NCBI GenBank assembly: GCA_002269645.1
Contig: NIVC01002686.1
Location: 62,001 to 126,000, forward strand
Direction of reading: 5' to 3'
DNA length: 64,000 nucleotides
Source of the DNA: Macrostomum lignano
Taxonomy: Eukaryota
In this document: piece after piece, positions 5,769 to 33,510 of the stretch
Layout: every line of letters starts with the position of its first letter
Position numbering within the stretch: position 1 is the stretch's first letter
Notes under the pieces: model-generated
Told to the model about the DNA's origin: nothing
Seen by the model: only the letters and a program-made list of their open reading frames with translations
The model's database searches: none
Position numbers and translations under genes: made by a program

Positions 5769-6018
5769 TGTTGTGTATTGCAAAGGCATGCGATGCGTAG
5801 GGGTAGTTCGGGGACAGCGTTTCTAGAAACTTCCACCGCGGACTTGTTTACGCATAGTTCCAGAAGTTTCCTTCCCCGGTCTTTCTAGAACTTTCCTTCC
5901 CCGCGTGCATAAATATACGAGCCGCCCTCCTATTGGCCAAACCCCTTCTTTCGGTGCCACTGAGCGCCCGGATAATTATCTATCTTGTTTCTGCGTTCGT
6001 TAATTCAACAACAGAACA
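5769..6018 (+). repeat. LTR1 (250 bp), TGTTGTGT...ACAGAACA
   Basis: TG...CA ends with 7/8 terminal inverted match; followed by the PBS. Confidence 0.93.
5821..5895. promoter_or_regulatory. Three heat-shock elements (TTCnnGAAnnTTC) in LTR U3; repeated in LTR2 and LTR3
   Basis: TTCTAGAAACTTC (5821), TTCCAGAAGTTTC (5858), TTCTAGAACTTTC (5883); TATA-like CATAAATA at 5908 and ATTGG at 5932. Confidence 0.8.
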
Positions 6019-6019
6019 T

Positions 6020-6034
6020 TGGCGACGAGGATGG
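6020..6034 (+). other. Primer binding site, probably tRNA-Ser(GCU) (also 10300-10314)
   Basis: TGGCGACGAGGATGG is complementary to the recalled metazoan tRNA-Ser(GCU) 3' end (CCAUCCUCGUCGCCA); the gag ATG lies inside it. Confidence 0.75.
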
Positions 6035-9000: not shown

Positions 9001-10000
9001 GAACTTTAAGGTCAGTCCGGCCCCGCTCAAGACCATACGCTGGCCAGATTCACCATGGGCAGAGATCGCCGTGGACATCGTCGGAGAACTGCAGGCGGCG
9101 CCGGCCTCTAGCAGGTACCTCATCGTCGTGACGGACCTGCACAGCAAGTGGCCGGAGGTCATCCCGACGGCCAGCATCACCACGGAGACCATCTGCCGTG
9201 CGATGCGCAGCCTGTTCGCAAGGTGGGGGCTGTGCGAGAAGGTGCTGACGGACAACGGCCCGCAGTTTGGCAGCGAGTTCTCGGACTTCTTGGCCGAGCA
9301 GGGCATCCGGCACGTCAAGACCAGCCTCTACCATCCGCAAACCAACGGCCAGACGGAGCGTCTCAATCGGTCGCTGCTCGCCAGCATCAGAGCGGCCATG
9401 GCGGAGAACAGGCCGTTTCAAGACGCCGTGACCAACTTCTTGTCTGCCTACCGGAGCTCCAAGCACAGCCTGACGGGCAAGTCACCGGCCGAGCTCATGC
9501 TGGGTCGGAAGTGGCGCACCGCGATCACCATGCTGTCTCCCGGAGGGGGAATGACAACGACCGAGGCGACGCCTCAGGCACTGCGGCAGCAAATCGAGGC
9601 GCGGCAGCAGCGGATCAAGGCCTACACCGATGCCAGACGAAGGGCCCGCCCCGAGACGTTCCACCCCGGCGATTGGGTGAGAATCCGACGGCCCACCAAG
9701 AAGGGCAAGCTGGGTACCCGCCTCTCACGGCCACTACAAGTGCTCCGTCAGGCGGGACACCACGCGGTCGAGCTCAGCGACGGCACCAGATGGAACCAGC
9801 AGCGGCTGATCCGAACGCCGCACCCGGCGCAGCCGAGAGAGCGGTTCGACCCACTGGTGGACTCGGCGCCAACGACCGGAGCCGGCACGGCGGCACCGGC
9901 GGCACCGGCGGCGGAGCCTCCGGCAAGAACAGCAGCGCCCCGCCGATCTGAGCGAGCCAGGCACCCGCCGATACGCTTCATGAACTGCCGCTGGGACTGA
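6031..10000 (+). pseudogene. gag-pol copy 1, two 1-bp deletions
   Basis: Matches copy 2 apart from a missing A at about 6109, a missing G at about 8456 and AAT vs AAA at 9367. Both deletions are in homopolymers, so they may be sequencing errors. Confidence 0.85.
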
Positions 10001-10033
10001 TTAAAGTGAAGCTTGGGGACTGTTGGACTCCTT

Positions 10034-10048
10034 GAAGGAGGGGAAGAA
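10034..10048 (+). other. Polypurine tract (also about 14316-14330)
   Basis: GAAGGAGGGGAAGAA immediately before the LTR. Confidence 0.9.
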
Positions 10049-10298
10049 TGTTGTGTATTGCAAAGGCATGCGATGCGTAGGGGTAGTTCGGGGACAGCGT
10101 TTCTAGAAACTTCCACCGCGGACTTGTTTACGCATAGTTCCAGAAGTTTCCTTCCCCGGTCTTTCTAGAACTTTCCTTCCCCGCGTGCATAAATATACGA
10201 GCCGCCCTCCTATTGGCCAAACCCCTTCTTTCGGTGCCACTGAGCGCCCGGATAATTATCTATCTTGTTTCTGCGTTCGTTAATTCAACAACAGAACA
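10049..10298 (+). repeat. LTR2 (shared central LTR, 250 bp)
   Basis: Appears identical to LTR1; PPT on the left, PBS on the right. Confidence 0.95.
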
Positions 10299-10310
10299 TT
10301 GGCGACGAGG

Positions 10311-13300
10311 ATGGCGGCTAGCATCCCCGCACCCACGCCCTTCCTGGCGAACTGCGGATCACCGACAGTACCATGGAGCCGATGGATTAAGGCCTTTGAA
10401 TTTTATTACGAGGCGGCCCAATTCAAGGAGCCCGAAGGGAAGGAAGAGGCGAAACCGCTGAAGAAGAGCCTTCTGCTCCATCTGCTTGGATTCGAAGGTC
10501 AGCGGGTTGCTCGAGCACGCCAAGCAATCAAGGAGAACGACACGTTCGCAGCAACTAAGGCGGAGCTCGAGAAGATCTTCGGCGAGAAGCCCAACGTGAT
10601 GGTAGCCAGATATCGCTTCCGCCAGCGCCAGCAGCTACCCGGCGAGGACGTCAAGACCTTCGTGGCAGCCCTGAGGGAGCTGACGGAGCTGTGCAACTAC
10701 GGGGCGATACAGGACGATCTCATCAGAGACCAGCTGGCTGAGAAGACCAGTAACCCCAGAATCCGAGAGAGGCTGCTGACGGAGAAGGTGGAGGACCTCA
10801 ACCTGGCGAAAGCGCTCAGCATCGCGGTCTCCATCGAGGAAGCCTCCAAAGAAGCCAAGGCGATGGCGCCATCAACCTCGAGCACGGCAGCCGTCCAATC
10901 GATCCGACAGCCGAGGGGCCAGAAGGTCGCTGCAAAGGGGAGGCACCGCCCAGCACCAGCTGGCAGGACGGCCAAACCCGGCGGCGCCTGCACGCGCTGT
11001 GGGCGAGACCACGGACCGACGACCCCCTGTCCGGCCAAGGGCAAGACATGCGAGGCCTGTGGCAAGAAGAACCACTTCCGGAGTTGCTGTCGCAGCCAGC
11101 AGGCTGCTGTCAATGCCGCGGACGAGGTGATCACAGTCTACGCAGTGCCGGGTGGCGACAGGGAGGTCCGGGCGACGCTGGAACTCGGACCGGACAGGAC
11201 CGCTGTCAGCCTGATGGTGGACTGCGGCGCAAGGGTGTCGCTGCTGTCCCGACAGACCGCCGATCGGATCTCAGGTGCAGTCACCTCTCCCACTACGACG
11301 AAGCTGCGTGCCTACGGCGGACTGCCAATCCAGCTAAGTGGTGTCACCGAGCTGGAGGTGCGCTACGGCGAAAAGGCGATGCAGCACCGGTTCTTCGTTG
11401 CGCCAGGCGGCGACAACATCGTCGGTAGAGACCTGATGGAGAAGCTGGGCTTCCGAGTCGACCTTAGCGGGCAGCCGCCCGGAATCGCGGAGGTCAGCGA
11501 CTTGACGGCGGACTTGCAGGCGCGGTACCCAACAACCTTCAGCGGTGCGATAGGATGCTGCACCGGCGCTGTACACCAGCCCAAGGTCGACCCAGCAGTG
11601 CGACCCGTCCAGCAGCCACTCCGCCGCCTGCCCCTCATGCGACAGGAGCAGGTCGGTGCCGAACTCGACAAGATGGAGAAGGACGGCATCATCGAGCGAG
11701 TCAACGCTAGCGAGTGGGTCTCCAATCTAGTGGTGACGGCGAAGAAGGATGGCAGCATCCGAATCTGCGTCGACGTTCGCGAGCCGAACAAGGCACTGAT
11801 CGTCGACAAGCACCCGATGCCACAGCTGGACGAGATTGCCTCGAAGATCAAGAAAGGCCGTGGCCGAGTGTTCAGCAAGATTGATCTGAAGTCGGGCTAC
11901 ATGCAGATGCAGCTGCATGAATCGAGCCGCAATCTGACAGCCTTCATCACGCACAAGGGGCTCTTCCGCTATCGTCGAGTTCCCTTCGGCCTGGCATCGG
12001 CACCAGCTGCTTTCCAGCGCATGCTCGACGATCAGGCCGCCGACCTCGACGGAGTGGAGCACATCTTGGATGACTTCATCGTGTACGGGCGCAGCGAGGA
12101 GGAGCACGATCGACGACTGGAGAAGTTGCTCCAGCGCCTCGAGGACAAGGGCATGACGGTGAACAAGCAGAAGTGCGCCTTCAAGCAGAAAGAGGTCGAA
12201 TTCTTCGGATTCGTGATCTCGGAGGCCGGCATCCGGCCAACGGAGTCAGCCACAGCGGCCATCAGGGACATCCGGCAGCCCGGAGATCAGAAGGCGTTGA
12301 AGTCATTCCTAGGCGCCGCTAACTTCCTGATGCGCTTCGTGCCGCACTACGCCGACATCACAGAGCCGCTTCGAAGGCTCCTGAAGGCCGACTCCAACTT
12401 CGACTGGACGCCGGAGTGCCAACGGGCGTTCGAAGCAGTGAAGGACGCCATCAGCAAGGCACCGACGCTCGCCCACTTCGACCCGAAGGCCGACACTATC
12501 GTCACCACGGATGCCAGCGCCAAGGCCATCGGAGCCCAGCTGTCGCAGATCCAGGACGGCGTCGAGCGACCGGTCGCCTTCGCCGCCCGAGCGCTGACGA
12601 CGACGGAACAGCGCTACGCCGCGAACGAGCGCGAGGCACTGGCTAGCCTCTGGGCGATGGAGAAGTGGCATTTCTACCTCTACGGTCGCCACTTCGAGCT
12701 GCGCACAGATCATCAGGCGCTGCAGCAGCTGCTTCTGGGACCGACCGGCACGGGACACCGGCCACTGCGGATCCACAGGTGGTGCGACCGGCTGCTGCAG
12801 TACGACTTCCACGTGCGCTACCTGCCAGGAAACAGCAACTACGTTGCCGATCTGCTTTCCCGGTGGAGCAGCGGATCGGAGCTAAACCTGATCCACCTGC
12901 CCGACACTCCAGGCCCGAGAGTCAAGGCGGTCACACTGGAAGCACTTACCGCAGGGACCGCAGCTGACGAGACACTGAGGACAGCCATCAGGAGCGTCAT
13001 TAGCGGCCGGTGGCCAGCTGACATCGACGACGTCGAGCTGCGGGCGCTCTGGAAGGTGCGCGAACAGCTAAGCGTCTGGAACAACGGCGAATGCCTTGCC
13101 TTCCAGGAGAGAGCGGTCATCCCAGAGTCTCTCCGCGGCCAGCTTCTCGAGCAGGCTCACGAAGGGCACCAGGGCATCGTGCGCACCAAGCAGGCGCTCC
13201 GCGACTCAGTCTGGTGGCCCGCCATGGACAAGGCGGTCGAGACCTTCGTGCGACACTGCGTAGCGTGCGAGACAGCCGAGAAGAACTTTAAGGTCAGTCC

Positions 13301-14282
13301 GGCCCCGCTCAAGACCATACGCTGGCCAGATTCACCATGGGCAGAGATCGCCGTGGACATCGTCGGAGAACTGCAGGCGGCGCCGGCCTCTAGCAGGTAC
13401 CTCATCGTCGTGACGGACCTGCACAGCAAGTGGCCGGAGGTCATCCCGACGGCCAGCATCACCACGGAGACCATCTGCCGTGCGATGCGCAGCCTGTTCG
13501 CAAGGTGGGGGCTGTGCGAGAAGGTGCTGACGGACAACGGCCCGCAGTTTGGCAGCGAGTTCTCGGACTTCTTGGCCGAGCAGGGCATCCGGCACGTCAA
13601 GACCAGCCTCTACCATCCGCAAACCAACGGCCAGACGGAGCGTCTCAAACGGTCGCTGCTCGCCAGCATCAGAGCGGCCATGGCGGAGAACAGGCCGTTT
13701 CAAGACGCCGTGACCAACTTCTTGTCTGCCTACCGGAGCTCCAAGCACAGCCTGACGGGCAAGTCACCGGCCGAGCTCATGCTGGGTCGGAAGTGGCGCA
13801 CCGCGATCACCATGCTGTCTCCCGGAGGGGGAATGACAACGACCGAGGCGACGCCTCAGGCACTGCGGCAGCAAATCGAGGCGCGGCAGCAGCGGATCAA
13901 GGCCTACACCGATGCCAGACGAAGGGCCCGCCCCGAGACGTTCCACCCCGGCGATTGGGTGAGAATCCGACGGCCCACCAAGAAGGGCAAGCTGGGTACC
14001 CGCCTCTCACGGCCACTACAAGTGCTCCGTCAGGCGGGACACCACGCGGTCGAGCTCAGCGACGGCACCAGATGGAACCAGCAGCGGCTGATCCGAACGC
14101 CGCACCCGGCGCAGCCGAGAGAGCGGTTCGACCCACTGGTGGACTCGGCGCCAACGACCGGAGCCGGCACGGCGGCACCGGCGGCACCGGCGGCGGAGCC
14201 TCCGGCAAGAACAGCAGCGCCCCGCCGATCTGAGCGAGCCAGGCACCCGCCGATACGCTTCATGAACTGCCGCTGGGACTGA
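10311..14282 (+). CDS. Intact Gag-Pol polyprotein (about 1323 aa)
   Basis: Zinc knuckles; protease VDCGA; RT (FSKIDLKSGY, ILDD); RNase H (TDAS); integrase (HEGH..CVAC, VDIVG, TDNGPQF, NGQTER). Confidence 0.95.
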   Translation: MAASIPAPTPFLANCGSPTVPWSRWIKAFEFYYEAAQFKEPEGKEEAKPLKKSLLLHLLGFEGQRVARARQAIKENDTFAATKAELEKIFGEKPNVMVARYRFRQRQQLPGEDVKTFVAALRELTELCNYGAIQDDLIRDQLAEKTSNPRIRERLLTEKVEDLNLAKALSIAVSIEEASKEAKAMAPSTSSTAAVQSIRQPRGQKVAAKGRHRPAPAGRTAKPGGACTRCGRDHGPTTPCPAKGKTCEACGKKNHFRSCCRSQQAAVNAADEVITVYAVPGGDREVRATLELGPDRTAVSLMVDCGARVSLLSRQTADRISGAVTSPTTTKLRAYGGLPIQLSGVTELEVRYGEKAMQHRFFVAPGGDNIVGRDLMEKLGFRVDLSGQPPGIAEVSDLTADLQARYPTTFSGAIGCCTGAVHQPKVDPAVRPVQQPLRRLPLMRQEQVGAELDKMEKDGIIERVNASEWVSNLVVTAKKDGSIRICVDVREPNKALIVDKHPMPQLDEIASKIKKGRGRVFSKIDLKSGYMQMQLHESSRNLTAFITHKGLFRYRRVPFGLASAPAAFQRMLDDQAADLDGVEHILDDFIVYGRSEEEHDRRLEKLLQRLEDKGMTVNKQKCAFKQKEVEFFGFVISEAGIRPTESATAAIRDIRQPGDQKALKSFLGAANFLMRFVPHYADITEPLRRLLKADSNFDWTPECQRAFEAVKDAISKAPTLAHFDPKADTIVTTDASAKAIGAQLSQIQDGVERPVAFAARALTTTEQRYAANEREALASLWAMEKWHFYLYGRHFELRTDHQALQQLLLGPTGTGHRPLRIHRWCDRLLQYDFHVRYLPGNSNYVADLLSRWSSGSELNLIHLPDTPGPRVKAVTLEALTAGTAADETLRTAIRSVISGRWPADIDDVELRALWKVREQLSVWNNGECLAFQERAVIPESLRGQLLEQAHEGHQGIVRTKQALRDSVWWPAMDKAVETFVRHCVACETAEKNFKVSPAPLKTIRWPDSPWAEIAVDIVGELQAAPASSRYLIVVTDLHSKWPEVIPTASITTETICRAMRSLFARWGLCEKVLTDNGPQFGSEFSDFLAEQGIRHVKTSLYHPQTNGQTERLKRSLLASIRAAMAENRPFQDAVTNFLSAYRSSKHSLTGKSPAELMLGRKWRTAITMLSPGGGMTTTEATPQALRQQIEARQQRIKAYTDARRRARPETFHPGDWVRIRRPTKKGKLGTRLSRPLQVLRQAGHHAVELSDGTRWNQQRLIRTPHPAQPRERFDPLVDSAPTTGAGTAAPAAPAAEPPARTAAPRRSERARHPPIRFMNCRWD

Positions 14283-14330
14283 TTAAAGTGAAGCTTGGGG
14301 ACTGTTGGACTCCTTGAAGGAGGGGAAGAA

Positions 14331-14576
14331 TGTTGTGTATTGCAAAGGCATGCGATGCGTAGGGGTAGTTCGGGGACAGCGTTTCTAGAAACTTCCACCG
14401 CGGACTTGTTTACGCATAGTTCCAGAAGTTTCCTTCCCCGGTCTTTCTAGAACTTTCCTTCCCCGCGTGCATAAATATACGAGCCGCCCTCCTATTGGCC
14501 AAACCCCTTCTTTCGGTGCCACTGAGCGCCCGGATAATTATCTATCTTGTTTCTGCGTTTGTTAATTCAACAACAG
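14331..14576 (+). repeat. LTR3, lacking the last 4 nt
   Basis: Matches LTR1/2 except one extra G and one C>T; ends CAACAACAG and runs into a minisatellite. Confidence 0.9.
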
Positions 14577-21400: not shown

Positions 21401-22680
21401 ATAAGTTGTTCTGAATGCATCATTATTCAAAAATTGAAAAATTGAAATTGAAAAAAGAAAGAATACTGTCATTATTAGAATATTTATGTATAAAACAGCT
21501 TGAGGGTAGAAGTATAGTTTAGAGAGACTTCGTGAGCTGCAGCAGCACTATTTTCTAGTCTTTTTTCTTAAAATAAGATATTTTCGTACAAGTTTAAACT
21601 TTTTATTTTCGAGAAAATAGATAAAATTTCGAGAAAAGAAAATTAGAAAAGTTAATTTTTGAAAATTTTTTAATAAAAAAGAATTAGATACGCTTACATC
21701 TAAATGTCTCCTCTTGATTCCTTAAATTATTAATAAATACATTGACTTATACTGGGCAAAAGGCTTTTTGTCTTAGCCAAACCTACTATTACTACTAATA
21801 AGAGTTCCAAAAATAGAGTTTACCCGGATCCGATTTGACAACTGGGTGCTATTAAATCTAAAGTTTTTGGCATGAACAGTACTGTCACTTAGCGCTATAA
21901 AGTGGTAGACAATTTTTTTCGAAAATATCAGATTATTTATTCACGATTCATGATCTTTGTGAATGAATGAATGAATTAAATATTTTAATCGCATTCTAAT
22001 TCCTACCTTCCTTTTCATAGTTCATCTGATAATTTACTAATTTAGTTATAGTAACATGGTCTCAGAAATGATTAGCTGTTCTAGCAAGATTCGCTTTGGA
22101 TTTGGATTTGGAAAGTTTGTGCCTCTTACACTACAGCTATAACTGTGTAGGCCTCTGCAGTTGCTCCTCAATAGAGTAGCAGCAGATTTGAATTTGAATA
22201 CATCAGTAGGTGGGGTCGGTGGGGATAGGGGGGGCCTAGGCCCTAATGTTATATTAAAATGTTATATTTAACAGAGTTCTTGAAACTCAGGCTGAGACCC
22301 AGAGCCTTTTCATGGCAATTGGTTCTAGAACCAGAACCAAACAATAGCAGAGTTATGACTCACAAAGATAGGCCTAGTTGTCAACTACTATATTTGTAAG
22401 CACAAAGATCACAAAGCACAAAGAGAATTATATTAAGATCTCTGCATTTAAATTACTCTAAAATTAGTAATACTAGCTATAGCCTATAGTAGGGCATATT
22501 ACACATTGTTTCAATACTCATAGGAAAGTATATTTTGTATACTTTCAGACGTATATTTTGGATTTACTTACTTATATCATTTAGTGCCTCTTTGATCCAA
22601 TTTGCATAACACACATTTGTACATTTTTTTCATTTTTGGGATACATTGTACGAAGCTCATTGGAACCCCTACTATAGTAT

Positions 22681-23410
22681 TGTAGAAGCGGTTACTGTTT
22701 TCTAGGAAATCTTATTTCTAAAATCACGCGAAAACTATGTTTTGTTTTAACTTGCAAAATATTCTTAATATTCTACGTTTGTTATAAATATACGCAGTTG
22801 AGATAGTATAAATAGGAGCGAAGTTGGAGGTAGGAAAATTAACACTCGTTCGATAGCTATAAGCTCAAAACGTTGTTCAATACTTATTCTCAGATCATTG
22901 CTTATTTTTAAGAGGTATTGAGAGTTGGGAATCAGGGATTCATGCAAAGAGAGTACTAAGAGTGATCGCTGTGACCCTCTAATCTCGGTAACGCCCAGAC
23001 TGGAGAGAGAAAGTACATATACCAGTAAGACCGCTCAGGCCATATACTAAGAACGCTACCAGACTAATATACTAAGAACGCTACCAGACTAATATACTAA
23101 GAACGCTACCAGACTAATATACTAAGAACGCTACCAGACTAATATACTAAGAACGCTACCAGATTAATACATAAGACGCTACCAGTATATTTAAATGACA
23201 TTCTAAGAAACAGTTAGAGATACCAAAGGCAGAATTTAGTATCAGCAGAGAAAATTGAAAACCTGTAACAACTTGGTGGCAGCTTGTAGGATATTTAATA
23301 AACACTAGCATCAATAGTTAGAAATTTAGAAAGACAGAGCCAGAAGGCCTATCACAGTTAGTGTCAGCAGTGGGATTGTTCACAAAGACAGGGGAATAAC
23401 ACCTGTCACA
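22681..23410 (+). repeat. 5' LTR (730 bp) with an internal 25-bp tandem repeat (about 23042-23185)
   Basis: Direct repeat of 30661-31390. Confidence 0.96.
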
Positions 23411-23412
23411 GC

Positions 23413-23423
23413 TGGTGGCAGCG
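23413..23423 (+). other. Primer binding site, probably tRNA-Leu
   Basis: TGGTGGCAGCG, 2 nt after the LTR, complementary to the recalled tRNA-Leu 3' end CGCUGCCACCA. Confidence 0.7.
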
Positions 23424-23511: not shown

Positions 23512-24329
23512 ATGAATCAGAATCAGGCTAATGACGCCATCGCCATGCTGGCAGAAGAATTGCGAAACCGACTAGAGATAGGGCCGATGAGACACGTTAA
23601 GATTCAGAAATTCACACCTACGCAAGACATTCGGATCTGGCTAACAGCCTTCGATCAGCGCTGTGAAGTAGAAGGGATAGATGAGGAACATAGGAAGCAG
23701 GAATTGCTAGCTAATCTGGACCTGTCCACTGCATTCGCAGCGGTACAGCGCCTAAATCTGCCCGAGGATCTCGAATACGAAGAGTTCAAAGAGCGACTGA
23801 TTGAGCGATTCGGAAGAATCGGTAGTTCCGCAGAATTCAGAGAGGAGTTTCGTGGAAGAATGCAAGGCAGAAATGAGCCTGTAGAGACTTTCGCAGACTG
23901 TTTGATCGAGCTGGCATCGCGTGCATTTCCAAATATGACGGTTGAGCAAAGGGAAGAAGAAATTGTTGAGCAATTCATCAAGGGAATCAGAATTCCGTCA
24001 GAGACCCGTGAGAAGCTAATCTTTGCGCAGCCAGGCAATTTGCAAGAGGCTAGAAGAATGCTAAGAAGGATGGAGGCTGCGTGGAACATGTCTCACAAGA
24101 ATGTCAACATGAGAATGGCCAAAGGCGAAGGTGAGAGTGAGCAGAAGGCAGAGCAGGAGAAGCTTGAGGACATAATCAAGAAGCAGAGAGCAGAGCTAGA
24201 GCAACAGAAGAAGGCGATTGACGAGTTGATGGAAGAGAAAAGAGCCAGCCGTCAGCAGTACCATCCGCAGAACCAATATCAAACCTATGCTCAGATCGCC
24301 GGACCGCCGCAGCAGCCGAGATATCGGCC

Positions 24330-24362
<33 letters not shown>

Positions 24363-24525
24363 AGTGTGGCGCGGTCAGCCTCAATTCAACAGGCAGCCAC
24401 AGCAACAACAGCAGCCTCGAGCCTGCTACAATTGCGGGAAGCTTGGCCACATGGCGAGGAATTGCCAGAGCGCTAGGCCAAACGGTCAGCGAGTGATGAA
24501 CTACCAGAAGCAGCAGGGAAACTGA
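23512..24525 (+). CDS. Gag (337 aa)
   Basis: Capsid-like helical region, Gln-rich tract, CCHC knuckle CYNCGKLGHMARNC. Confidence 0.93.
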
Positions 24526-24570
24526 GTAGCGAGGGCCGCTTTGCGAGGCCACGTCCCTCTAGCAACAGTT
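24516..24570 (+). promoter_or_regulatory. -1 ribosomal frameshift signal
   Basis: Slippery heptamer G_GGA_AAC directly before the gag TGA; the -1 frame is open to pol; downstream GAGGG...CCCTC stem. Confidence 0.8.
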
Positions 24571-27500
24571 ATCGCGAATTTCAGGCCTCTGAATTTGTAA
24601 ATAATGCGTATCGAAGTAATGCCAGACAGTATAGTAACAGCAGAACGCATGCCGAATTCAATAAATTTCACAGAAAACCAAATAAAAATTTTGCACCTCG
24701 TGTACATACGCCGCTTGCACCTAGTCATGCGTCTGCCAGCTACAGTAGGCCGAATAATAAAGTACAAAGTACAGTAATTCCGAATGAGCATTCGAAGAGA
24801 GAATTCGAAGAAGATACGGAGAGAAAAGGACGAGAAGCAGTCGTCAATGGAATGCTAAGAAACCGAAAGGTCTACTTCCTGTTAGACACAGGAGCTGGAC
24901 ATAATTTCCTAAGCAAGAGTACGTGGAAAAAGATGTTCAGAAGTGATGAAATTGAGTTGACTACTCGAAGAGTGACTACGTTTGACGGATCAAGTGTGCG
25001 AATTGAAGGAGAAGTCAGAACGAAAATACGATTCGGAGAGATAGAGATTGAGACAGAGTTCCTGCTGTGCAATCACGAGTGTGACGACATACTCGGGATG
25101 GAGTTCTTCATGAACTTCTGCGACAGCATCAGCCTTTCCAGAGGAATGCTTGTATTAAAAGAAGGGACCTGCATCCCGATTCAGTTTACAAAATTACCCG
25201 TACGGGTCTGCCGAATCTACAGCCATAACAGCGTGACTATACCAGCGAATAGCGCTCTTCGAATTCCAGTTAGAATGACTAAAGGATCAGAAGCCAACTA
25301 TGGAACGCCAATGGTCGTTGACACCATTGGAGGCCAAGTGACTACGAAGAGGAATTCCTTAGAGATGATTCCTACTCTAGTGACCATGAACGATGGAACA
25401 GGAGTAGTGGAAATAATCAATCGACAGAATGACGATATCAGACTGACAAGATCTACGCTGATTGGAGTGGCCAAACCCTTGAAGCCAGGAGGCCTGGCCT
25501 ACTCTATTAACAGCAAAGGTCAAGCCAGTTCAGATGATGCAATTAGGACAGTGAAGAGTGAAGAGAGTGAGTACAGCTGGATAAGCGAGATAGACTTAGG
25601 AGAAGAGCTAACATCAGAACAGAAAGGACTAGTGATCGATTTGCTAAAAAAGAACAAAGAAGCATTTTCGCAGACCAACCAAGACATGGGTCTCACCCAT
25701 CTTGTGACGCATGAAATATCTCTAAAAGATACTACACCGGTCAGGATTCCAACACGCAGAATTCCACCACATCTGCAAAAGCAAGTAGATGAGCAACTTG
25801 ACGACATGCTTGCTAAGAACTTGATCCGACCGTGCTATAGTACTTATTCGACGCCGCTAGTGATAGTTCCTAAGAAGGATGGATCCATAAGAATCGTCAG
25901 TGACTTCAGGGTCCTGAACTCGAGAGTGAACTATTACCCATATCCATTGCCGAACATACAAGAGACTTTCGCTCAGTTATCTGGAAGCAAGTACTTCAGT
26001 AGTCTAGATTTAAACTCTGGATACTGGCAGGTACCTATCAAAGAGGAGCACAAATTTATGACAGCCTTTTCCACCCTTACCAGAGGCCAGTTCGAATATC
26101 AGGTCATGGCACAGGGCTTGTCTAACGCTCCTGGTACATTCCAGAGACTCATGAATTTGGTGCTGATGGGAATACAGCACAAATTCGCAATGTCGTACAT
26201 AGATGATATTGTGACATACTCAGAGAAATTCGAAGATCATCTCGGTCATCTGCAAGAAGTATTTCAAAGACTAATCTCAGCAGGGCTAAAGTTAAGACCA
26301 AAAAAGTGCAACTTGTTTCAGAAAGAGCTAAAGTACTTAGGGCATATCGTAGGAAGAGAAGGGATTAGAACAGACCCAGCTAAGATCGAAGCGATACAGT
26401 CATGGCCTACGCCGAAAGAGGTCAAAGAACTGCGAAGCTTCTTGGGGTTGTGTAACTACTACTGCAGATTTGTAAAGAATTACGCAGAGGCAGCGCATCC
26501 GCTATTTCAATTAACTAAGAAAGGTATTCAAAACTTTAGGGAAAAGTGGACTAAGAAGCATGATGAGGCTTTCCAGCAGTTGAAGCAGAGAATGACATCG
26601 ACCGAAGTACTTGCGTACCCAGAGTTCTCAGAGAACGAAAATGTTCGAATGGTGTTAGATACCGACGCAAGCGAAGACCGAATTGGTGCTTGCCTGGGTC
26701 AAATACAGTCGGACGGGGTTGAGAGACCCATTGCTTACTTCAGCAGAGCAATGAAAGAGTCTGAGAAAAGATATCCGATTACCAGAAAAGAGCTATTAGC
26801 GCTAGTAGATGGCATGAAACACTTTCGATTTTACCTGATCGGCAAAAGGTTTCTGGCCCGCACAGACCACAAGGCAATTCTATGGTTATTGCGCCAGACC
26901 GAAGCCCAAGGAATTCTTGGAAGGTGGATTGAAAGACTGAGTGAGTTTCAATACGATATTGAGCACCGCAGTGGAGCCAAACATTCCAACGCAGATGGAT
27001 TGTCACGGCGACCCTCGGAACCACCAGTTGAACAGAAAGATGCTAAGATCAAAGAGAATGAGGCTGAAATTCCTAAGATGACAATAGAAACCAGCGCTGT
27101 GAAACAAGTCGTGACTAGCAGCGTGAAAGATCAGAGTTGCCAGACCGACTTCACAGAAGAGTACGAACCAGATTCCGAAGACGAATTCGCAGATGATGAA
27201 TACGAAGATGCCAGTGATCAGTTCGAAGATGATGATGACATCTATGAAGATGCAAGAGACTATTTCGAAGAGGAAGAGACAGTGTGCAGAAAGCTTCTGA
27301 CAGATTACCTCTCGGTTCCATTGAAGAAAGAGCAGCTGACTTCAGCGCAGCATGCTGATCCTTCTATAAGGACCTTGATGGACTGGAAGCAGAAGAAAGT
27401 ACGTGAGCCGAAGTTACCAGAAAATGCATCCGGAGAGTTGAAGAAGATGGTTAAGTTCTACGAGCAGATGAAAATCGAAGATGAAATGCTGACAGTCAGT

Positions 27501-29021
27501 GAAAACGGTAAACGAAAAGTAGTATTGCCAGAGAAGATTGAGAAAGATGTTTTCAAAGAGCTGCACGATAGTCCGCTAGCAGGCCACCTAGGTCGGGACA
27601 AGACGCTACAGCGAGTCCGAGACCGATTCTGGAGGCCAGGGTTAGTGACTGCAGTTGAAAAGTACATCGCAGAATGCATCCCGTGTCTGGAAAGTAAAAG
27701 CGGAAATAAAGTACGAGCACCGGTGCAGACCTTTCCGATATGTGAGCCATTCCATCGGCTGCACATAGATTTGATCGGTCCAATATCAAAGGAAAGCAGA
27801 AGAGGACACCGTTATGTACTTACTGTCGTAGATAGTACAACAAAGTTCCCATTCGCTTTCCCGGTTCGGAATCAGAAATCCGCTACTGTTATCAAAACTA
27901 TTCAAGAGAGAATTTTTAGTGAGTATGGCCAGTGCCAATGGATACACACTGATAATGGCAAGACTTTCGTAAGTCACCAATTTCAGGCATTCTGTACCCT
28001 ATATGGCATTAAGCATACTTGCACTACGCCTTACCATGCTCAGAGTAACGGGCTTGTCGAAAGATTTAACAAGCAAATTAAATCGATTGTAACCTGTTTG
28101 ATTGAAAAGGATCATTCAGATTGGGATCTGCTCATACCCGCCGCTTTGGTAGCTGTGCGAACCAGTGTTAATCAAACTACTGGGTTCACACCACACTACT
28201 TACTATTCGGGAGAGAAGCAGATTTGCCAATAGATAGCATTGTGAAAAGGCCAAGACTATACCGAGACTATCCTAGCTATGTGCTGGATCATGCGAAGAG
28301 AATCGAAGAGACAAAAGCAATTGTGCGAAGACAACTCGAAAAGGTACGAGAGAAAAGGCAAGAGGACGAAGTTGAGAATCGTCAGCCTAAAAATGTGCCA
28401 GTTGGCTGTCTCGCTCTCATCAATAACCCTCAACTTCACCAAGAGGAGAGCCACAAGTTTCATCGAAAGAAAAGAGCAGCCTATCGAGTACTTGCGAAGA
28501 TATCAGACACAGTGTTCCGTGTGCAAAGAGAAATCAATGGCGAAAGGAGCGGAGAAAAACTATTAGTACATAGAAATAATCTGACTCCAGTGCCGAAATC
28601 CGAAATTAATTTATCCGAAGAGATTATTAATAATTTAGAACCAGCAATAGTACAAACTAAAAAGAAGGAGCAGCCAAAGAAAAGAATTTGCCATAGACGA
28701 AAAGAAGTTAGAATCCCAGAAGTTCAAATTTTAGAGGAGGAAAGCTCAGACGAAGAAGACAGAATTCAATGGAGAGTGTTCGCAGATCATAATTCGCAGA
28801 GTGAAAACGAAGGAAATGAAGAACTGAACAGTGAAAATACAGAGAGAGCGACTGACTCAGATGAGCCATCAGAAGAGGAAGGAGCAATAGAGTTAGGGGA
28901 GGAAGCTCAGCCAGTAGAAAGGTATAATCTGAGACCACGAGGCGATAGAGTGACTCAGCAAGGAGAAGGTGTGAACGGATTCGTGCCCCGAAGGCGCTAC
29001 GCGCGATATTTGGAACAATAG
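24522..29021 (+). CDS. Pol (PR-RT-RNaseH-INT); first ATG at 24852
   Basis: LLDTGA protease; YIDD RT; LDTDAS RNase H; HDSPLAGH..CIPC, HIDLIG, TDNGKTF, NGLVER integrase. Confidence 0.96.
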   Translation: MSSEGRFARPRPSSNSYREFQASEFVNNAYRSNARQYSNSRTHAEFNKFHRKPNKNFAPRVHTPLAPSHASASYSRPNNKVQSTVIPNEHSKREFEEDTERKGREAVVNGMLRNRKVYFLLDTGAGHNFLSKSTWKKMFRSDEIELTTRRVTTFDGSSVRIEGEVRTKIRFGEIEIETEFLLCNHECDDILGMEFFMNFCDSISLSRGMLVLKEGTCIPIQFTKLPVRVCRIYSHNSVTIPANSALRIPVRMTKGSEANYGTPMVVDTIGGQVTTKRNSLEMIPTLVTMNDGTGVVEIINRQNDDIRLTRSTLIGVAKPLKPGGLAYSINSKGQASSDDAIRTVKSEESEYSWISEIDLGEELTSEQKGLVIDLLKKNKEAFSQTNQDMGLTHLVTHEISLKDTTPVRIPTRRIPPHLQKQVDEQLDDMLAKNLIRPCYSTYSTPLVIVPKKDGSIRIVSDFRVLNSRVNYYPYPLPNIQETFAQLSGSKYFSSLDLNSGYWQVPIKEEHKFMTAFSTLTRGQFEYQVMAQGLSNAPGTFQRLMNLVLMGIQHKFAMSYIDDIVTYSEKFEDHLGHLQEVFQRLISAGLKLRPKKCNLFQKELKYLGHIVGREGIRTDPAKIEAIQSWPTPKEVKELRSFLGLCNYYCRFVKNYAEAAHPLFQLTKKGIQNFREKWTKKHDEAFQQLKQRMTSTEVLAYPEFSENENVRMVLDTDASEDRIGACLGQIQSDGVERPIAYFSRAMKESEKRYPITRKELLALVDGMKHFRFYLIGKRFLARTDHKAILWLLRQTEAQGILGRWIERLSEFQYDIEHRSGAKHSNADGLSRRPSEPPVEQKDAKIKENEAEIPKMTIETSAVKQVVTSSVKDQSCQTDFTEEYEPDSEDEFADDEYEDASDQFEDDDDIYEDARDYFEEEETVCRKLLTDYLSVPLKKEQLTSAQHADPSIRTLMDWKQKKVREPKLPENASGELKKMVKFYEQMKIEDEMLTVSENGKRKVVLPEKIEKDVFKELHDSPLAGHLGRDKTLQRVRDRFWRPGLVTAVEKYIAECIPCLESKSGNKVRAPVQTFPICEPFHRLHIDLIGPISKESRRGHRYVLTVVDSTTKFPFAFPVRNQKSATVIKTIQERIFSEYGQCQWIHTDNGKTFVSHQFQAFCTLYGIKHTCTTPYHAQSNGLVERFNKQIKSIVTCLIEKDHSDWDLLIPAALVAVRTSVNQTTGFTPHYLLFGREADLPIDSIVKRPRLYRDYPSYVLDHAKRIEETKAIVRRQLEKVREKRQEDEVENRQPKNVPVGCLALINNPQLHQEESHKFHRKKRAAYRVLAKISDTVFRVQREINGERSGEKLLVHRNNLTPVPKSEINLSEEIINNLEPAIVQTKKKEQPKKRICHRRKEVRIPEVQILEEESSDEEDRIQWRVFADHNSQSENEGNEELNSENTERATDSDEPSEEEGAIELGEEAQPVERYNLRPRGDRVTQQGEGVNGFVPRRRYARYLEQ

Positions 29022-29434
29022 GGTGATGACGTCAGCGAATTGCCATTGAAACCAGTGTAAATTAGTTAAAATTTCATATTAATAATTGTTATTTGCCTAT
29101 AAAAATTGACATGTTGTACATACAACAAATCTGAAAACACCATAGTATTCTGCTAAATGTAAGCTTTCATATGACATATTACTCAAGAAAAAATCTCGAA
29201 AAATAAAAAAGTTATAAAAATCTAAAGAAAATCCATAAAAAATCTGAGTGTCAAATCTGCCAACCCAAGCACCCCCCACTCGAGGCCCGCGTGGAACACA
29301 ATGATGCGGTCCAGCTTTTCGGCCGCCAGCCTATAAATGCAAAACCCCCTGACCGCTAGCAGGCCCCCATATTTCACACATCCGAAGAGCGATTCGAAGA
29401 TTAAATACTAAGAGCTGTGCAGAGTAATTCGAAG

Positions 29435-30274
29435 ATGGACAACAACGACGATATTGACAAATTCCTGCAAGACCTTTTGGAAGATGGCAATCCAAGCGAA
29501 GAACAAGAGCGAGAGCGCGAAGAGCGAGAGCGCGAAGAGCGAGAGCGTGAAGAGCGAGAGCGCGAGCAGCGAGAGCGTGACCGAGAGCGACGAGCCCGAG
29601 AGCAGCAGGAGAACGAGGCTCCCCTCAGGCAGCCAACGCGCCCAAGGCCCCCAGGCGGGGATTCCGCCACCAAGCGATCGAGCGCTTCATCATTTGCTGC
29701 CGCCTCGAGTCAGTCCAACGAACCAGAGAGGAAGCGGGCTGCCCTGCTAGAACGACAAGCGGCCGCGCCAATCCGTTCTTGTGTCATGAAAGCGGATAGC
29801 GCTGGCGGCCGATCGATACAGCTTGCCGTCCCAGTTGAAGCGCCGTCTCGTGGGCGCAGACAATCGAATGCTCGCCAATCTCGCCCAGGTACGCCACCAG
29901 CGCGCCCGCCGCCGCAGGAAGACTCGCAGGATCATCGCGCCATTGTTCGCCAGCTCATCGAGACCAGAGGCGCCGAGGTCGAACGCCCGCGGCACAGCCT
30001 CCAACAGTACCTTCTGAGAATCGCCTTTCTGCGTCTAGACGAGGCTCTGCCGCAGCGGTCGCAGATTTGGCCTCACCTGCGCACTCTGCGTGAGCACTTT
30101 AACCATCGCGAGGCTGTGGCTGTGCTGCAGGAGATCGCCGAACGTCTCCAGCGCACATTGCAAGCGGATGCCCGGCCGGCGCAGCGGCAGCTGGTCAATA
30201 TCGAGCTGCGATGGTGCTTCTCGCAGCTCGGATGGCCATTCTATCGAGACCTGCCCCGGTATTGCGACTTTTGA
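29435..30274 (+). CDS. Accessory ORF3 of unknown function (279 aa from the ATG)
   Basis: Uninterrupted GC-rich ORF between pol and the 3' LTR; acidic N-terminus, RE-rich tract, helical-looking C-terminal domain; no signal peptide or TM segment visible. Confidence 0.75.
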   Translation: MDNNDDIDKFLQDLLEDGNPSEEQEREREEREREEREREEREREQRERDRERRAREQQENEAPLRQPTRPRPPGGDSATKRSSASSFAAASSQSNEPERKRAALLERQAAAPIRSCVMKADSAGGRSIQLAVPVEAPSRGRRQSNARQSRPGTPPARPPPQEDSQDHRAIVRQLIETRGAEVERPRHSLQQYLLRIAFLRLDEALPQRSQIWPHLRTLREHFNHREAVAVLQEIAERLQRTLQADARPAQRQLVNIELRWCFSQLGWPFYRDLPRYCDF

Positions 30275-30646
30275 ACTTTTGACACTTTGACATTTAATAT
30301 TTCTGCTATGCCTAGTTTCTTTAAACTTTACTATGCTTATTTTCTTTAAATTTTACTATGTCTATTGTCTTTAAAACCTTACTATGCCTATTTTTCTTTG
30401 ATATGCCTACTTTTGTGGACAATTAACAGTCTATTTCTATTGTGTGTTGCTCACCTATGCACTGCATTTCGTTCTTTAGCACCCAAAGCACCTATATTGA
30501 CTATCTGATTTAGCAGTTGTACTATGTTTTATGTTTTCTTTAATAGCATTTGTACTAAATATGTTTTATTTTCAGCTTCCAATTTTTATGTTAAATGTAC
30601 TCATAAATTTTTCACTGTAGCATTGCTTTCATTCAAAATTCATGAT

Positions 30647-30659
30647 AAGAGGAGGAAAG
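30647..30659 (+). other. Polypurine tract
   Basis: AAGAGGAGGAAAG just before the 3' LTR. Confidence 0.85.
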
Positions 30660-30660
30660 T

Positions 30661-31390
30661 TGTAGAAGCGGTTACTGTTTTCTAGGAAATCTTATTTCTA
30701 AAATCACGCGAAAACTATGTTTTGTTTTAACTTGCAAAATATTCTTAATATTCTACGTTTGTTATAAATATACGCAGTTGAGATAGTATAAATAGGAGCG
30801 AAGTTGGAGGTAGGAAAATTAACACTCGTTCGATAGCTATAAGCTCAAAACGTTGTTCAATACTTATTCTCAGATCATTGCTTATTTTTAAGAGGTATTG
30901 AGAGTTGGGAATCAGGGATTCATGCAAAGAGAGTACTAAGAGTGATCGCTGTGACCCTCTAATCTCGGTAACGCCCAGACTGGAGAGAGAAAGTACATAT
31001 ACCAGTAAGACCGCTCAGGCCATATACTAAGAACGCTACCAGACTAATATACTAAGAACGCTACCAGACTAATATACTAAGAACGCTACCAGACTAATAT
31101 ACTAAGAACGCTACCAGACTAATATACTAAGAACGCTACCAGATTAATACATAAGACGCTACCAGTATATTTAAATGACATTCTAAGAAACAGTTAGAGA
31201 TACCAAAGGCAGAATTTAGTATCAGCAGAGAAAATTGAAAACCTGTAACAACTTGGTGGCAGCTTGTAGGATATTTAATAAACACTAGCATCAATAGTTA
31301 GAAATTTAGAAAGACAGAGCCAGAAGGCCTATCACAGTTAGTGTCAGCAGTGGGATTGTTCACAAAGACAGGGGAATAACACCTGTCACA
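30661..31390 (+). repeat. 3' LTR (730 bp)
   Basis: Direct repeat of the 5' LTR, followed by the GTAT TSD. Confidence 0.96.
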
Positions 31391-33510
31391 GTATTAAGCA
31401 AAAATATACTTACATAAAATTTAAAAGCTACACAATTGCAGTTGTAAATGATTATCCAAATAGAATAATCAGTGGCTTATTTTAAAAATCAAGCAAGAAC
31501 TAACTTACATTTTTATACTCATTGGTAGACTGTTGCACTTGTCTTGATTGCCAAACCAAGGGATATGACCTAAGTGCAAGCAGCTAAGTAGAAAGCTGCA
31601 GATGATAAGTTTGCTAGCTCGATATTTGGCCCAGTTGCATTTTATATACTCCTGCAGTTGCTGGTAATGCAACTTGCATTGACACTTTGGGCTCCTTGCT
31701 CATGCACTAAGGAGATATAAACTAGCACAAGCTAAGCTTCCTTGTATAGCAACTCTATCAGTGGTTACAGAGTCAGCTGGGTATGCTCCACCTGCTGCTT
31801 TAGTTGCTGGTGCTAGCCTTCGCACTCATTATTAGTTCAAACTTCAAATTGACTGGGCAAACATGCCTTTTTCTTGGACACTATGCACTGGGCTATTTAG
31901 CTATGTGCTAGTGATGTACTCAGCAAAGGTTGAATAGTTCTGGAGGCTAAACACTAGTGATAACCTTGGTAAGCCCATCAGCCATGTGTTCGCCTGGTAG
32001 ATAAGGCAGTGCCATCAGCAAGTGGCAGAATTCTCATATGCCAGGATCCTTGAGATAGGCTTGCTGGAGGCCCATATGCTATATATGGCAAGTTTGCACC
32101 CATAGAATAAAATTACAATGAACATTTGCATATATATAGTGAGCATTTAGATTCCAATTATAGCAACAAGCTGAATCTCTAAGCTCAAATCCTATATTTT
32201 ACAGACTATTGATTGAGTAACAATTTATATTTAAAACAAAAACAATCAAATAACAATTTATAGCTTTGCAAAGTGTCCTCAAAATTAGGTCACTTTATCA
32301 TCTAGATTTTTAACAATTTTTTGGTATGACAAAGCATCCAAAAACCATGGTCACTTTATCATCTAGATGAGGAAGTGGTAAGATGACAAAGTGTCTAGGA
32401 ATATCTCAGACAATGATATAGAAATTGAGAAAAAAACTAGAATCAAACTTTTTCTATATAAAGAAAAGGGGGCTCTACTCTTGGACTTAGGAATTTGAGG
32501 GAACCATTTAAAATGTAAGAATAATTATGCTATTGAATAATATTGAGGATTGCAATGCCCTCCCAAATCAAAATCAATGGGGTAGCTACCTTTGCTGCCT
32601 CCTATTCCATGGTTCCTAGCCTTGTCTTTGAAATAGCATATAGTCATATATGCTATTTAGCTATCTTCTGTTTTCTAAATTTGTTCATTAGCTCTGATAT
32701 GTATATGTATCTTAATGTATATATAACCTTGCATGAAAGTTTGATATATAATAAAAAATTAAGAACCAAAGCATTCTAAGAATCAAAAGTTTATATATAT
32801 ATATCTTTATATAAACTTGAACTGCAGTTAATTTCTTTAGGATATAGATAGCAGCATATATATATGAATAGCAAATATTTTTTTCTTAAATTAATATGAT
32901 CATTATGTAAATATCGTATTAGATTTATTATTAGATACAATAAAAAAACTAACTGCAATTCAAGTTTATACAATATATACTGCTAGATCTATGCTTTTTT
33001 CTTGAGACTAGTATATTTAAAGTTGGCATAAGGGCCTATGTCCTTGCAGTGGGAATTTCTTTTATAATATATTGTATTAGCATAAAAAAGGAACTTGTTA
33101 ACCTTTACGCGACAAACCAAAATTTGCGTCACACCCTTTGCCGACGGCTGGCTGGCACGATTTCGTGCCAAGTGCATGAGTGTCAGAATTTCTACCCCCC
33201 GTTCCAGATGGCAGCTAGCTTCACAAGTACACCCGTATGTAGCAAAGCCGCTAAACCAAAAGATAATTTGTCTATGGCTGGGGACCAAATGCTATGACTG
33301 CATGTCTTTCATTCATGAGAAAACCTTACAGGGAAATATGGAAAGGGCACTATTTTCGGCCACAGATTTTTATTGAAATCACTGTCGTGCTCATAATAGT
33401 TCTGCCAAGGACCTACTTCAGAAATACAGAAACAGTCTTATTATAAAATTGGATATTTTTATCCTCTGTCTACCCAAAGCACCAAGCATTTCGCTCCTGA
33501 GAATCATTAC

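Follow-up and report, generated by a model that had tools for sequence, protein, structure and literature searches.

Foamy viruses possess Tas/Bel1, an early transactivator that carries an acidic helix and is encoded by an accessory gene at the 3' end, expressed from an internal promoter of its own, and the VANDAL elements, the carriers of VANC in Arabidopsis, are plant DNA transposons. VANC is the product of a fast-evolving extra gene of a methylated element, located next to tandem arrays that are specific to the family, and the targets of VANC form tandem repeats (PMC5735166). Among the Gypsy elements of animals, CERV of Cer1 in C. elegans is described as a nuclear protein required for genomic RNA export (PMC10309623). 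Herpesvirus ICP27 contains the REF-binding peptide SVWSRLGARR (PMC3017119), in both ICP27 and ORF57 a basic, disordered region contains a short word that binds REF/ALYREF (PMC3017119, PMC5095910), and an RLG class of ALYREF ligands has been reported (PMC13370473). The LTR retrotransposons of bdelloid rotifers include a non-env third ORF behind pol that has moved as a module (PMC5408684).

The third open reading frame (ORF3) compared here with these systems belongs to a Ty3/Gypsy element in a 64,000-nt stretch of the Macrostomum lignano genome (the window; contig NIVC01002686.1, positions 62,001 to 126,000, forward strand). CERV (PMC10309623) and the ORF3 protein are both accessory proteins of animal Gypsy elements that diverge fast and are confined to their lineage; each combines structured domains with flexible linkers and has a candidate NLS as well as a conserved Ser/Thr site close to a proline. 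However, CERV is produced from a spliced mRNA that shares gag exons and has H, M and G-protein-like domains (PMC10309623), whereas ORF3 is a self-contained ORF behind pol with its own ATG, a promoter-like block and one five-helix domain; the export role is demonstrated for CERV, while for ORF3 it is a proposal from sequence. The REF-binding pattern of ICP27/ORF57 occurs in 8/33 family proteins, but it is absent from the window ORF3, and no sequence or fold match to these proteins was observed among the rows listed. The rotifer genes are env-like or encode TM, GDSL esterase or DEDDy exonuclease products with clear donors (PMC5408684), whereas the window ORF3 has neither a Pfam match nor a donor, is all-helical and is swapped as alleles within one clade. 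Fast evolution and nearby family-specific arrays in a methylated element are common to VANC and ORF3. No homology between the two was found, and the association of arrays with the ORF3 tree amounts to 2 changes and is confounded by linkage. ORF3 resembles Tas/Bel1 in being a 3' accessory gene with a promoter-like block and an acidic helix, and differs from it in that no env lies upstream, no homology was found and the U3 is not strictly tied to the ORF3 type.

The host element and the anatomy of ORF3

The element displays the paired TG...CA LTRs, target-site duplication, primer-binding site and polypurine tract of a Ty3/Gypsy LTR retrotransposon together with its gene order, gag followed by a single-frame pol with PR-RT-RH-INT, and its RT-RH is 35% identical to that of the neighbouring Mag element. 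The initial annotation had called it intact and recent, which is borne out by the identical 730-nt LTRs, the GTAT duplication, the CCHC knuckle of gag and the single frame of pol (Table 1). In addition, contigs from two runs connect 22675 directly to 31390, and such an empty site in some contigs is expected if the insertion is recent and not common to all haplotypes. The heptamer at the gag end is likely the site of a -1 frameshift from gag to pol. The primer-binding site is tRNA-Leu-like, and a pattern search found no primer tRNA gene matching it.

Table 1. Features of the element (positions within the window)
Feature	Position	Strand	Details
5' target-site duplication	22677..22680	+	GTAT
5' LTR	22681..23410	+	730 nt, TG...CA
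Words in 5' LTR U3 (short)	22700; 22727; 22742	+	STAT-like; E2F-like; Fox/Sox-like
5' LTR signals	22807; 23042-23185; 23297	+	TATA; 25-nt tandem array; AATAAA
Primer-binding site	23413..23423	+	TGGTGGCAGCG
gag	23512..24525	+	337 aa, single CCHC knuckle
Heptamer at gag end	24516-24522	+	GGGAAAC
pol frame	24477..29021	+	1514 aa stop to stop, PR-RT-RH-INT
Crossover zone	28600..28900	+	in pol tail
Predicted internal promoter	29303..29339	+	GATGCGGTCCAG.TTT element 29303-29319, TATAAA 29332-29337, then ATG-free leader
ORF3	29435..30274	+	279 aa, non-env accessory gene
Acidic amphipathic helix	29444..29482	+	ORF3 aa 4-16
(R/E)n helix	29492..29611	+	ORF3 aa 20-59
Conserved short-motif chain	29615..29830	+	in basic disordered linker, ORF3 aa 61-132
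Conserved C-terminal domain	29924..30271	+	ORF3 aa 164-279, predicted five-helix bundle
3' UTR	30275..30646	+	T-rich, CpG-poor
Polypurine tract	30647..30659	+	
3' LTR	30661..31390	+	identical to 5' LTR
3' target-site duplication	31391..31394	+	GTAT

The TATA and AATAAA of the window LTR are about 490 nt apart (22807-23297), a spacing that implies a long R region, within which the tandem array lies, and the skipping of a poly(A) signal on the 5' side, and AATAAA or ATTAAA was also observed between pol and the internal promoter in 9/11 elements. At 23262-23290 and 31242-31270 the LTR holds an inner copy of its own end plus the primer-binding site (TGTAACA-ACT-TGGTGGCAGC), and the LTR of locus L031 contains a 52-nt repeat of a unit of this kind; LTRs may grow in this way by priming at a second site. 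Long acidic stretches lie within pol between RNase H and integrase (27150-27280) and in the integrase tail (28720-28900). The T fraction of the 3' UTR is 0.42-0.51 in 15/15 family copies, and its sequence is not conserved. The local CpG loss reported at the outset lies outside the genes: CpG o/e is 0.16 and 0.09 in the two flanks and 0.13 in the 3' UTR, and ORF3 (1.16), gag (0.79) and pol (0.86) show no such loss.

Elsewhere in the window, 5769-14576 holds a GC-rich Gypsy element as two units in tandem that have the middle LTR in common; the units are 99.9% identical over 4.5 kb, and the first is frame-shifted. The LTR of this tandem element contains three canonical heat-shock elements and agrees at two words with the Mag reporter LTR Mlig-id115 published in PMC12801592. 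Stop-free frames of 279 codons, without a start codon, lie over the Mag integrase at 9112-9951 and 13394-14233, and are likely a shadow of high GC3. Dense minisatellite arrays with units of 8-83 nt fill 33000-64000, including inverted arrays at 44-46 kb and 48-50 kb.

ORF3 runs between pol and the polypurine tract in the sense direction without an internal stop, as first annotated, and the other five frames across it contain 4-7 stops each. All the segments named at that stage, DDIDKFLQDLLED, the (R/E)n tract, the basic linker and the C-terminal HRAIV...YCDF, were located in the protein, and ORF3 is indeed more GC-rich than pol (GC 0.62 vs 0.44). The reported absence of a signal peptide or TM helix was upheld, since the highest 19-residue hydropathy is only 0.59, and the N-terminus is acidic; ORF3 thus lacks the signal peptide and C-terminal TM helix of an env, and its model is soluble and helical.

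A constant segment order was observed in 33 family proteins of 235-535 aa: acidic N-terminal helix, low-complexity spacer, RxxT[RQK]P, SVV-type word, RxxLL-type helix, second spacer and C-domain. A net-acidic N-terminus and a basic linker are present in all 33, RxxT[RQK]P in 31, the RxxLL-type helix in 30 and the SVV-type word in 24. The linker of the window protein (aa 61-132) carries EAPLRxxTRP, KR, a KRAALLxxQA helix, S-V/C-V and RSIQL. The (R/E)n tract is not conserved, as relatives carry different low-complexity repeats in its place, and it is a replaceable spacer. Overlapping second open frames of 200-350 codons over the repeat-rich part of ORF3 (L031, L034, L035, L038, L045, L058 and others) are probably a by-product of GC-rich repeats.

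The C-domain contains D202, P206, L218, W260, W267 and P274 as invariant residues in 20/20 aligned family proteins and a conserved R-L-D..LPQR loop, and it is mildly basic across the family (net charge 0 to +8). AlphaFold2 predicts five helices for it (pLDDT 88, pTM 0.83), which agrees with the helical-looking C-terminus initially described, and in the full-length model the linker is disordered, with one helical domain and no strands. Pfam gave 0 families for the window ORF3 or its C-domain, and a scan of 27 family members gave a best E of 0.016 with at most 2 members per Pfam family. Word-index searches with residues 160-279 and with the family alignment returned no match, the PDB sequence search returned 3 rows at E 5-6, the Atlas query with homologue P0004 returned no usable feature match and structure rows all below threshold, and Foldseek against PDB and BFVD returned nothing at E <= 0.001. 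The VIA structure search with the C-domain model gave a best Z of 7.6 (8j2w_B) and none reaching 8, values below about 13 being ordinary for helical bundles according to the tool's note. Neither Foldseek nor the VIA rows listed contain a known RNA-binding fold resembling the C-domain, and ICP27, Rev, Tas and VANC do not appear among the VIA matches listed, which excludes none of them. The C-domain is therefore a predicted five-helix bundle without a clear known relative.

Family, selection and cassette exchange

A C-domain search of the worm's own genome produced at least 150 scored matches (263 candidates) with 29-100% identity, fragments included, and a distant-member query produced at least another 150 (258 candidates), partly overlapping the first list; the matches lie nearly all within one Gypsy clade. 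Around 60 matches, chosen to span types and biased towards open frames, 10 kb were fetched: 23 loci contain gag, RT and INT in order, 7 contain part of pol, 17 have an LTR pair and a diverged gag without pol, 9 lack family gag and pol, 3 are old copies and 1 was not evaluated. Of those nine, six lie next to pieces of family LTRs or elements, a PPT-like word alone is present at two, and L085 has neither. A further view is given by 17 loci from the distant-member query, 14 with gag, RT and INT (RT 83-90% identical to the window) and 3 with part of pol. Against 1.84 billion representative proteins the family profile found 8 matches at E <= 0.001, five of them named as Macrostomum lignano and one a Logan protein with the same architecture; P0009 and P0011, bacterial repeat proteins with 8 short stretches each, were rejected as spurious.

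No donor of ORF3 outside the elements was found among these representative proteins, and every pol lineage of the clade includes elements with ORF3. In 9/9 elements GC3 is higher in ORF3 than in RT, so that the GC contrast is an old and stable property with no sign of recent capture. The suggestion that the gene had been acquired is not supported. In the literature searched, no description of an ORF3 protein was found. LTR families of Macrostomum lignano have been classified from the RT outward (PMC12801592); the words 'ORF' and 'accessory' are absent from the main text of that article, the supplements were checked for short words, and a third ORF may be mentioned in its predecessor (its ref 16). 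Gypsy elements with extra ORFs are already known as a kind; ORF3 is a real accessory gene family and, as far as the searches reach, its protein type is undescribed.

ORF3 is under purifying selection, with omega about 0.12-0.2. A codon model over 24 C-domains and 118 columns gave omega 0.122, with lnL -6665.5 against -7171.5 at best when omega was fixed at 1; RT shows omega 0.018. Nine close pairs, which weigh more because deep pairs are saturated at silent sites, gave pN/pS 0.20 in the C-domain (32 synonymous, 19 nonsynonymous) and 0.23 in the N-terminus and linker (97 and 64). Among 31 young copies (LTRs >=99.5% identical), taken from the top matches, a choice that favours open frames, ORF3 is open in 22, including 13/18 autonomous and 9/13 pol-less copies, while pol is open in 9/18 of the autonomous ones; many of the ORF3 breaks are frame shifts and possibly assembly errors. 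Among ten older copies, ORF3 was scored open in 4 by script, to which inspection adds L040 as a fifth. An excess of silent changes was also observed in the ORF3 of the pol-less pairs L053/L054 and L038/L065. The disrupted or neutrally evolving frames that would have spoken against a functional non-env accessory gene, as proposed in the initial annotation, were thus not observed, and neither was an env or host domain match in the Pfam, PDB and fold searches.

ORF3 is swapped as a cassette among family members, and old alleles sit on young pol backbones. Where the RTs of elements differ at 0-6% of silent sites, the accompanying C-domains diverge at 60-81% of silent and at 12-40% of replacement sites; between L033 and L036 the RT DNA is identical, yet pS in ORF3 is 0.75. 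Pol lineage A carries at least 3 ORF3 types and lineage B carries 5. The window element, too, is a recombinant: starting at the leader and on through pol it follows the autonomous lineage A (L036, L063, L069), downstream of about 28,600-28,900 it matches the pol-less L052/L053 type, and from 28,900 on it is 92-99% identical to L052 vs 36-77% to lineage A. An assembly chimera was considered and rejected, since L051 holds this recombinant once more, between different flanks, which indicates that the recombinant has moved. The reverse exchange is seen in pol-less L061, which carries a lineage-A cassette. A strict ORF3-U3 pairing was also rejected, as the U3 usually but not always travels with ORF3: C-domain DNA and U3 identities are 0.99 and 0.57 for L045/L046, 0.98 and 0.68 for L038/L065, 0.73 and 1.00 for L033/L036, and 0.75 and 0.98 for L064/L040.

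In the pol-less copies the mini-Gag is followed by a stretch of some 1 kb or longer that holds no long ORF, and this by the pol tail; the part of pol that they retain is the tail at the crossover zone. Their mini-Gag (L053:5061-5636 oriented, and 10 other copies) is 190-197 aa long, about 30% identical to Gag and altered in its Cys/His knuckle, with omega 0.159 over the 11 copies. They share ORF3 alleles with helpers (L061/L063, L031/L058, L034/L035), and the retention of a selected ORF3 by copies without pol suggests an action before packaging that is cis or allele-specific, not simply borrowed from the helper.

Stand-alone copies of the C-domain were also detected, as an ORF of 118-119 aa at L085:7826-8182 and likewise at L091 and L092 (G000 C846, C2203, C3012). 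This ORF lacks the last conserved W-P tail and has an intact copy of the internal promoter upstream, and no LTR, pol or PPT was found near it in the 10 kb fetched. The three copies have kilobases of common flank at 94-98% identity and the ORF is open in all of them; pairs differ by 1-4 silent and 1-2 replacement changes, counts too small to show selection. Judged from these features, it is a candidate domesticated dominant-negative.

The predicted internal promoter and possible roles of ORF3

Upstream of ORF3, a TATA-type word was observed in 12/16 promoter types (shuffle mean 2.0), CCAAT in 10/16 (shuffle mean 3.4) and the GGTCCAG.TTT element in 12/16 (0 in shuffles), the last once per element and at this position only, and the leader is ATG-free in 16/16 types (5.8 expected); the types share descent, so that these counts are not independent. 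The promoter-like block and the ATG-free leader make it likely that ORF3 has its own mRNA, a subgenomic transcript from its own promoter. Contigs of presumed RNA runs cover parts of ORF3 (X6 from 29352; X8, from 29271, and X10 across the TATA box), and because X8 and X10 span the TATA box, the contigs give no readable start site. Contigs aligned to the element showed no splice joint, and only weak acceptor sites (6-11 pyrimidines of 14) lie upstream of ORF3. Spliced-leader trans-splicing is common in Macrostomum lignano (PMC5730564) and offers an alternative route to an ORF3 mRNA. Words above shuffle levels in the U3 regions were STAT-like in 11/20, Fox/Sox-like in 14/20 and E2F-like in 7/20, which suggests host control linked to signalling and proliferation; heat control of the family was rejected, as 0/40 family LTRs contain a heat-shock element. 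In most types the LTR has short tandem arrays 3' of its TATA, the units of which are specific to the family, and none occurs in L047.

The reading that we prefer, as possible though short of probable, is that ORF3 is a nuclear adaptor that would raise the output of full-length element RNA through the host TREX factors ALYREF and UAP56. The internal TATA promoter would yield a short mRNA ending in the 3' LTR, so that ORF3 could be made independently of LTR transcription; the basic linker would carry the protein into the nucleus, the helical C-domain with its R-L-D..LPQR loop would hold element RNA or chromatin, and short motifs of the N-terminus and linker would recruit host factors. Template switching of co-packaged RNAs within the shared pol tail would then exchange the cassette. 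CERV is a precedent for this reading, and motifs of the family speak for it: the RLG word occurs in 10/33 family proteins (1.0 expected) and PhixxRL[GA]xR in 8/33 (0.1 expected), although counts made on related proteins cause shuffle expectations to overstate significance, and these motifs match the ICP27 peptide and the RLG ligand class. A Phi-D-x-Phi-Phi word lies within the first 25 residues of 16/33 proteins, the window ORF3 included, and resembles the host ALYREF N-terminus MPDKIALSLDDIIKM, read from this genome, to which MDDSLDDFIQE of L038 can be compared. Against the adaptor stand the lack of RLG in the window ORF3 and 17 other group-I proteins of the set of 33, the lack of enrichment of RS-type words (13/33 vs 11.9 expected) and a C-domain that is just mildly basic and resembles no known RNA-binding fold in the Foldseek results and the VIA rows listed; EEGE[IL] occurs in 2/33. 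Since no splice joint was seen, a Rev-like need for the export of intron-bearing RNA is not evident. Complex modelling of UAP56 (P0018, residues 35-430) with ORF3 residues 1-40, without alignments, gave a score of 0.00, which is no evidence either way. The host ALYREF (L120, G000 C175) is intronless and present in three copies, and UAP56 (L111-L116) is present in six copies with a 288-codon first exon.

The acidic N-terminal helix fits an activation domain equally well, and it is followed by acidic residues, the host motif by basic ones. An unlikely but credible rival is a transcriptional transactivator, made early from the internal promoter, in which the acidic activation helix, the nuclear linker and the helical binding domain would switch on the LTR. 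The conservation of the promoter-like block, the occurrence of the acidic amphipathic helix in all family proteins and the receipt of ORF3 and U3 from one parent by the window recombinant are in line with it, but ORF3 type and U3 are only loosely coupled (e.g. L045/L046, 0.99 vs 0.57), no notable 7-mer is common to U3 and internal promoter, and no DNA-binding fold was matched in Foldseek PDB or among the VIA rows listed.

Fairly unlikely is a VANC-like anti-silencing factor that would bind the LTR arrays and avert DNA methylation or piRNA silencing, with allele swapping as an arms race. Macrostomum lignano silences transposons via Piwi (PMC4604429). The LTR pairs of 40 elements show transitions at 61/1774 CpG vs 51/27,598 other positions, a roughly 19-fold excess as expected for methylated copies, and the family-specific arrays 3' of the LTR TATA and the many old alleles on young backbones would suit such a factor. 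On the other hand, the array class requires just 2 changes on the ORF3 tree and falls on one side of a branch in 10% of bootstraps, the array-ORF3 association is otherwise explained by linkage alone, and L047 has no array. Omega, as a whole C-domain estimate, is far below 1, and CpG retention is expected in a young element even without an antagonist. Nothing ties ORF3 to CpG methylation, and the family motifs lean slightly to RNA processing or export. The export, transactivator and anti-silencing readings are not mutually exclusive.

A broader scheme, distinctly unlikely as a whole, would combine three players: a nuclear regulator that has its own promoter and a new domain and mimics host mRNA-export motifs, its ancient alleles riding on young pol backbones; a pol-less mini-Gag satellite as allele reservoir and donor; and a host-captured bare C-domain with promoter as a dominant-negative inhibitor. 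If true, an animal Gypsy clade would have built such a system independently of retroviruses and herpesviruses.

Cullin mimicry, in which the C-domain would imitate cullin repeat 1 and serve a host ubiquitin ligase as decoy or adaptor, is improbable. Six cullin N-terminal rows do stand among the 50 VIA rows listed, over model residues ~17-120 (8gq6_C Z 7.5, rmsd 3.5, 101 aligned; 4ap2_B 6.5; 4a64_A 6.1; 6v9i_C 5.8; 9bj9_D 5.8; 4wqo_D 5.7), but identity is 6-11%, unrelated bundles tie or exceed them (8j2w_B Z 7.6, 3pmc_B 7.5), all Z values are below 8 and ordinary for helical bundles, and Foldseek gave none at E <= 0.001. Very improbable is a self-restraint or competition factor, by which ORF3 would limit rival alleles or copy number, so that rare alleles gain and many persist; the several ORF3 types on pol lineages A and B and the alleles shared by pol-less copies and helpers would accord with it, but activation models could account for this retention equally well. 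A chance frame or dead passenger in GC-rich DNA is scarcely credible: a stop-free frame of at least 279 codons in any of six frames arose in 17/2000 composition-preserving block shuffles of the pol-to-LTR region and 9/31 young copies are broken, but purifying selection, conserved motifs and a confident predicted fold argue against chance, and pol is broken more often, in 9/18 of the same young copies.

Significance for the Gypsy clade and its host

Accessory regulators in the style of retroviruses are hardly known from the LTR retrotransposons of animals, CERV being the worked-out case found, and ORF3 represents a second, unrelated accessory protein family beside it. For annotation, families defined by RT similarity conceal several regulatory types, and RT-first pipelines overlook copies that lack pol but continue to encode two proteins under selection. 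As a model, the host offers RNAi and transgenes along with an LTR reporter already in print, which makes it testable how a methylated, piRNA-targeted element stays expressed in stem cells. The clade itself shows an unusual population structure, in which many old ORF3 alleles, young backbones and a coding satellite lineage occur together.
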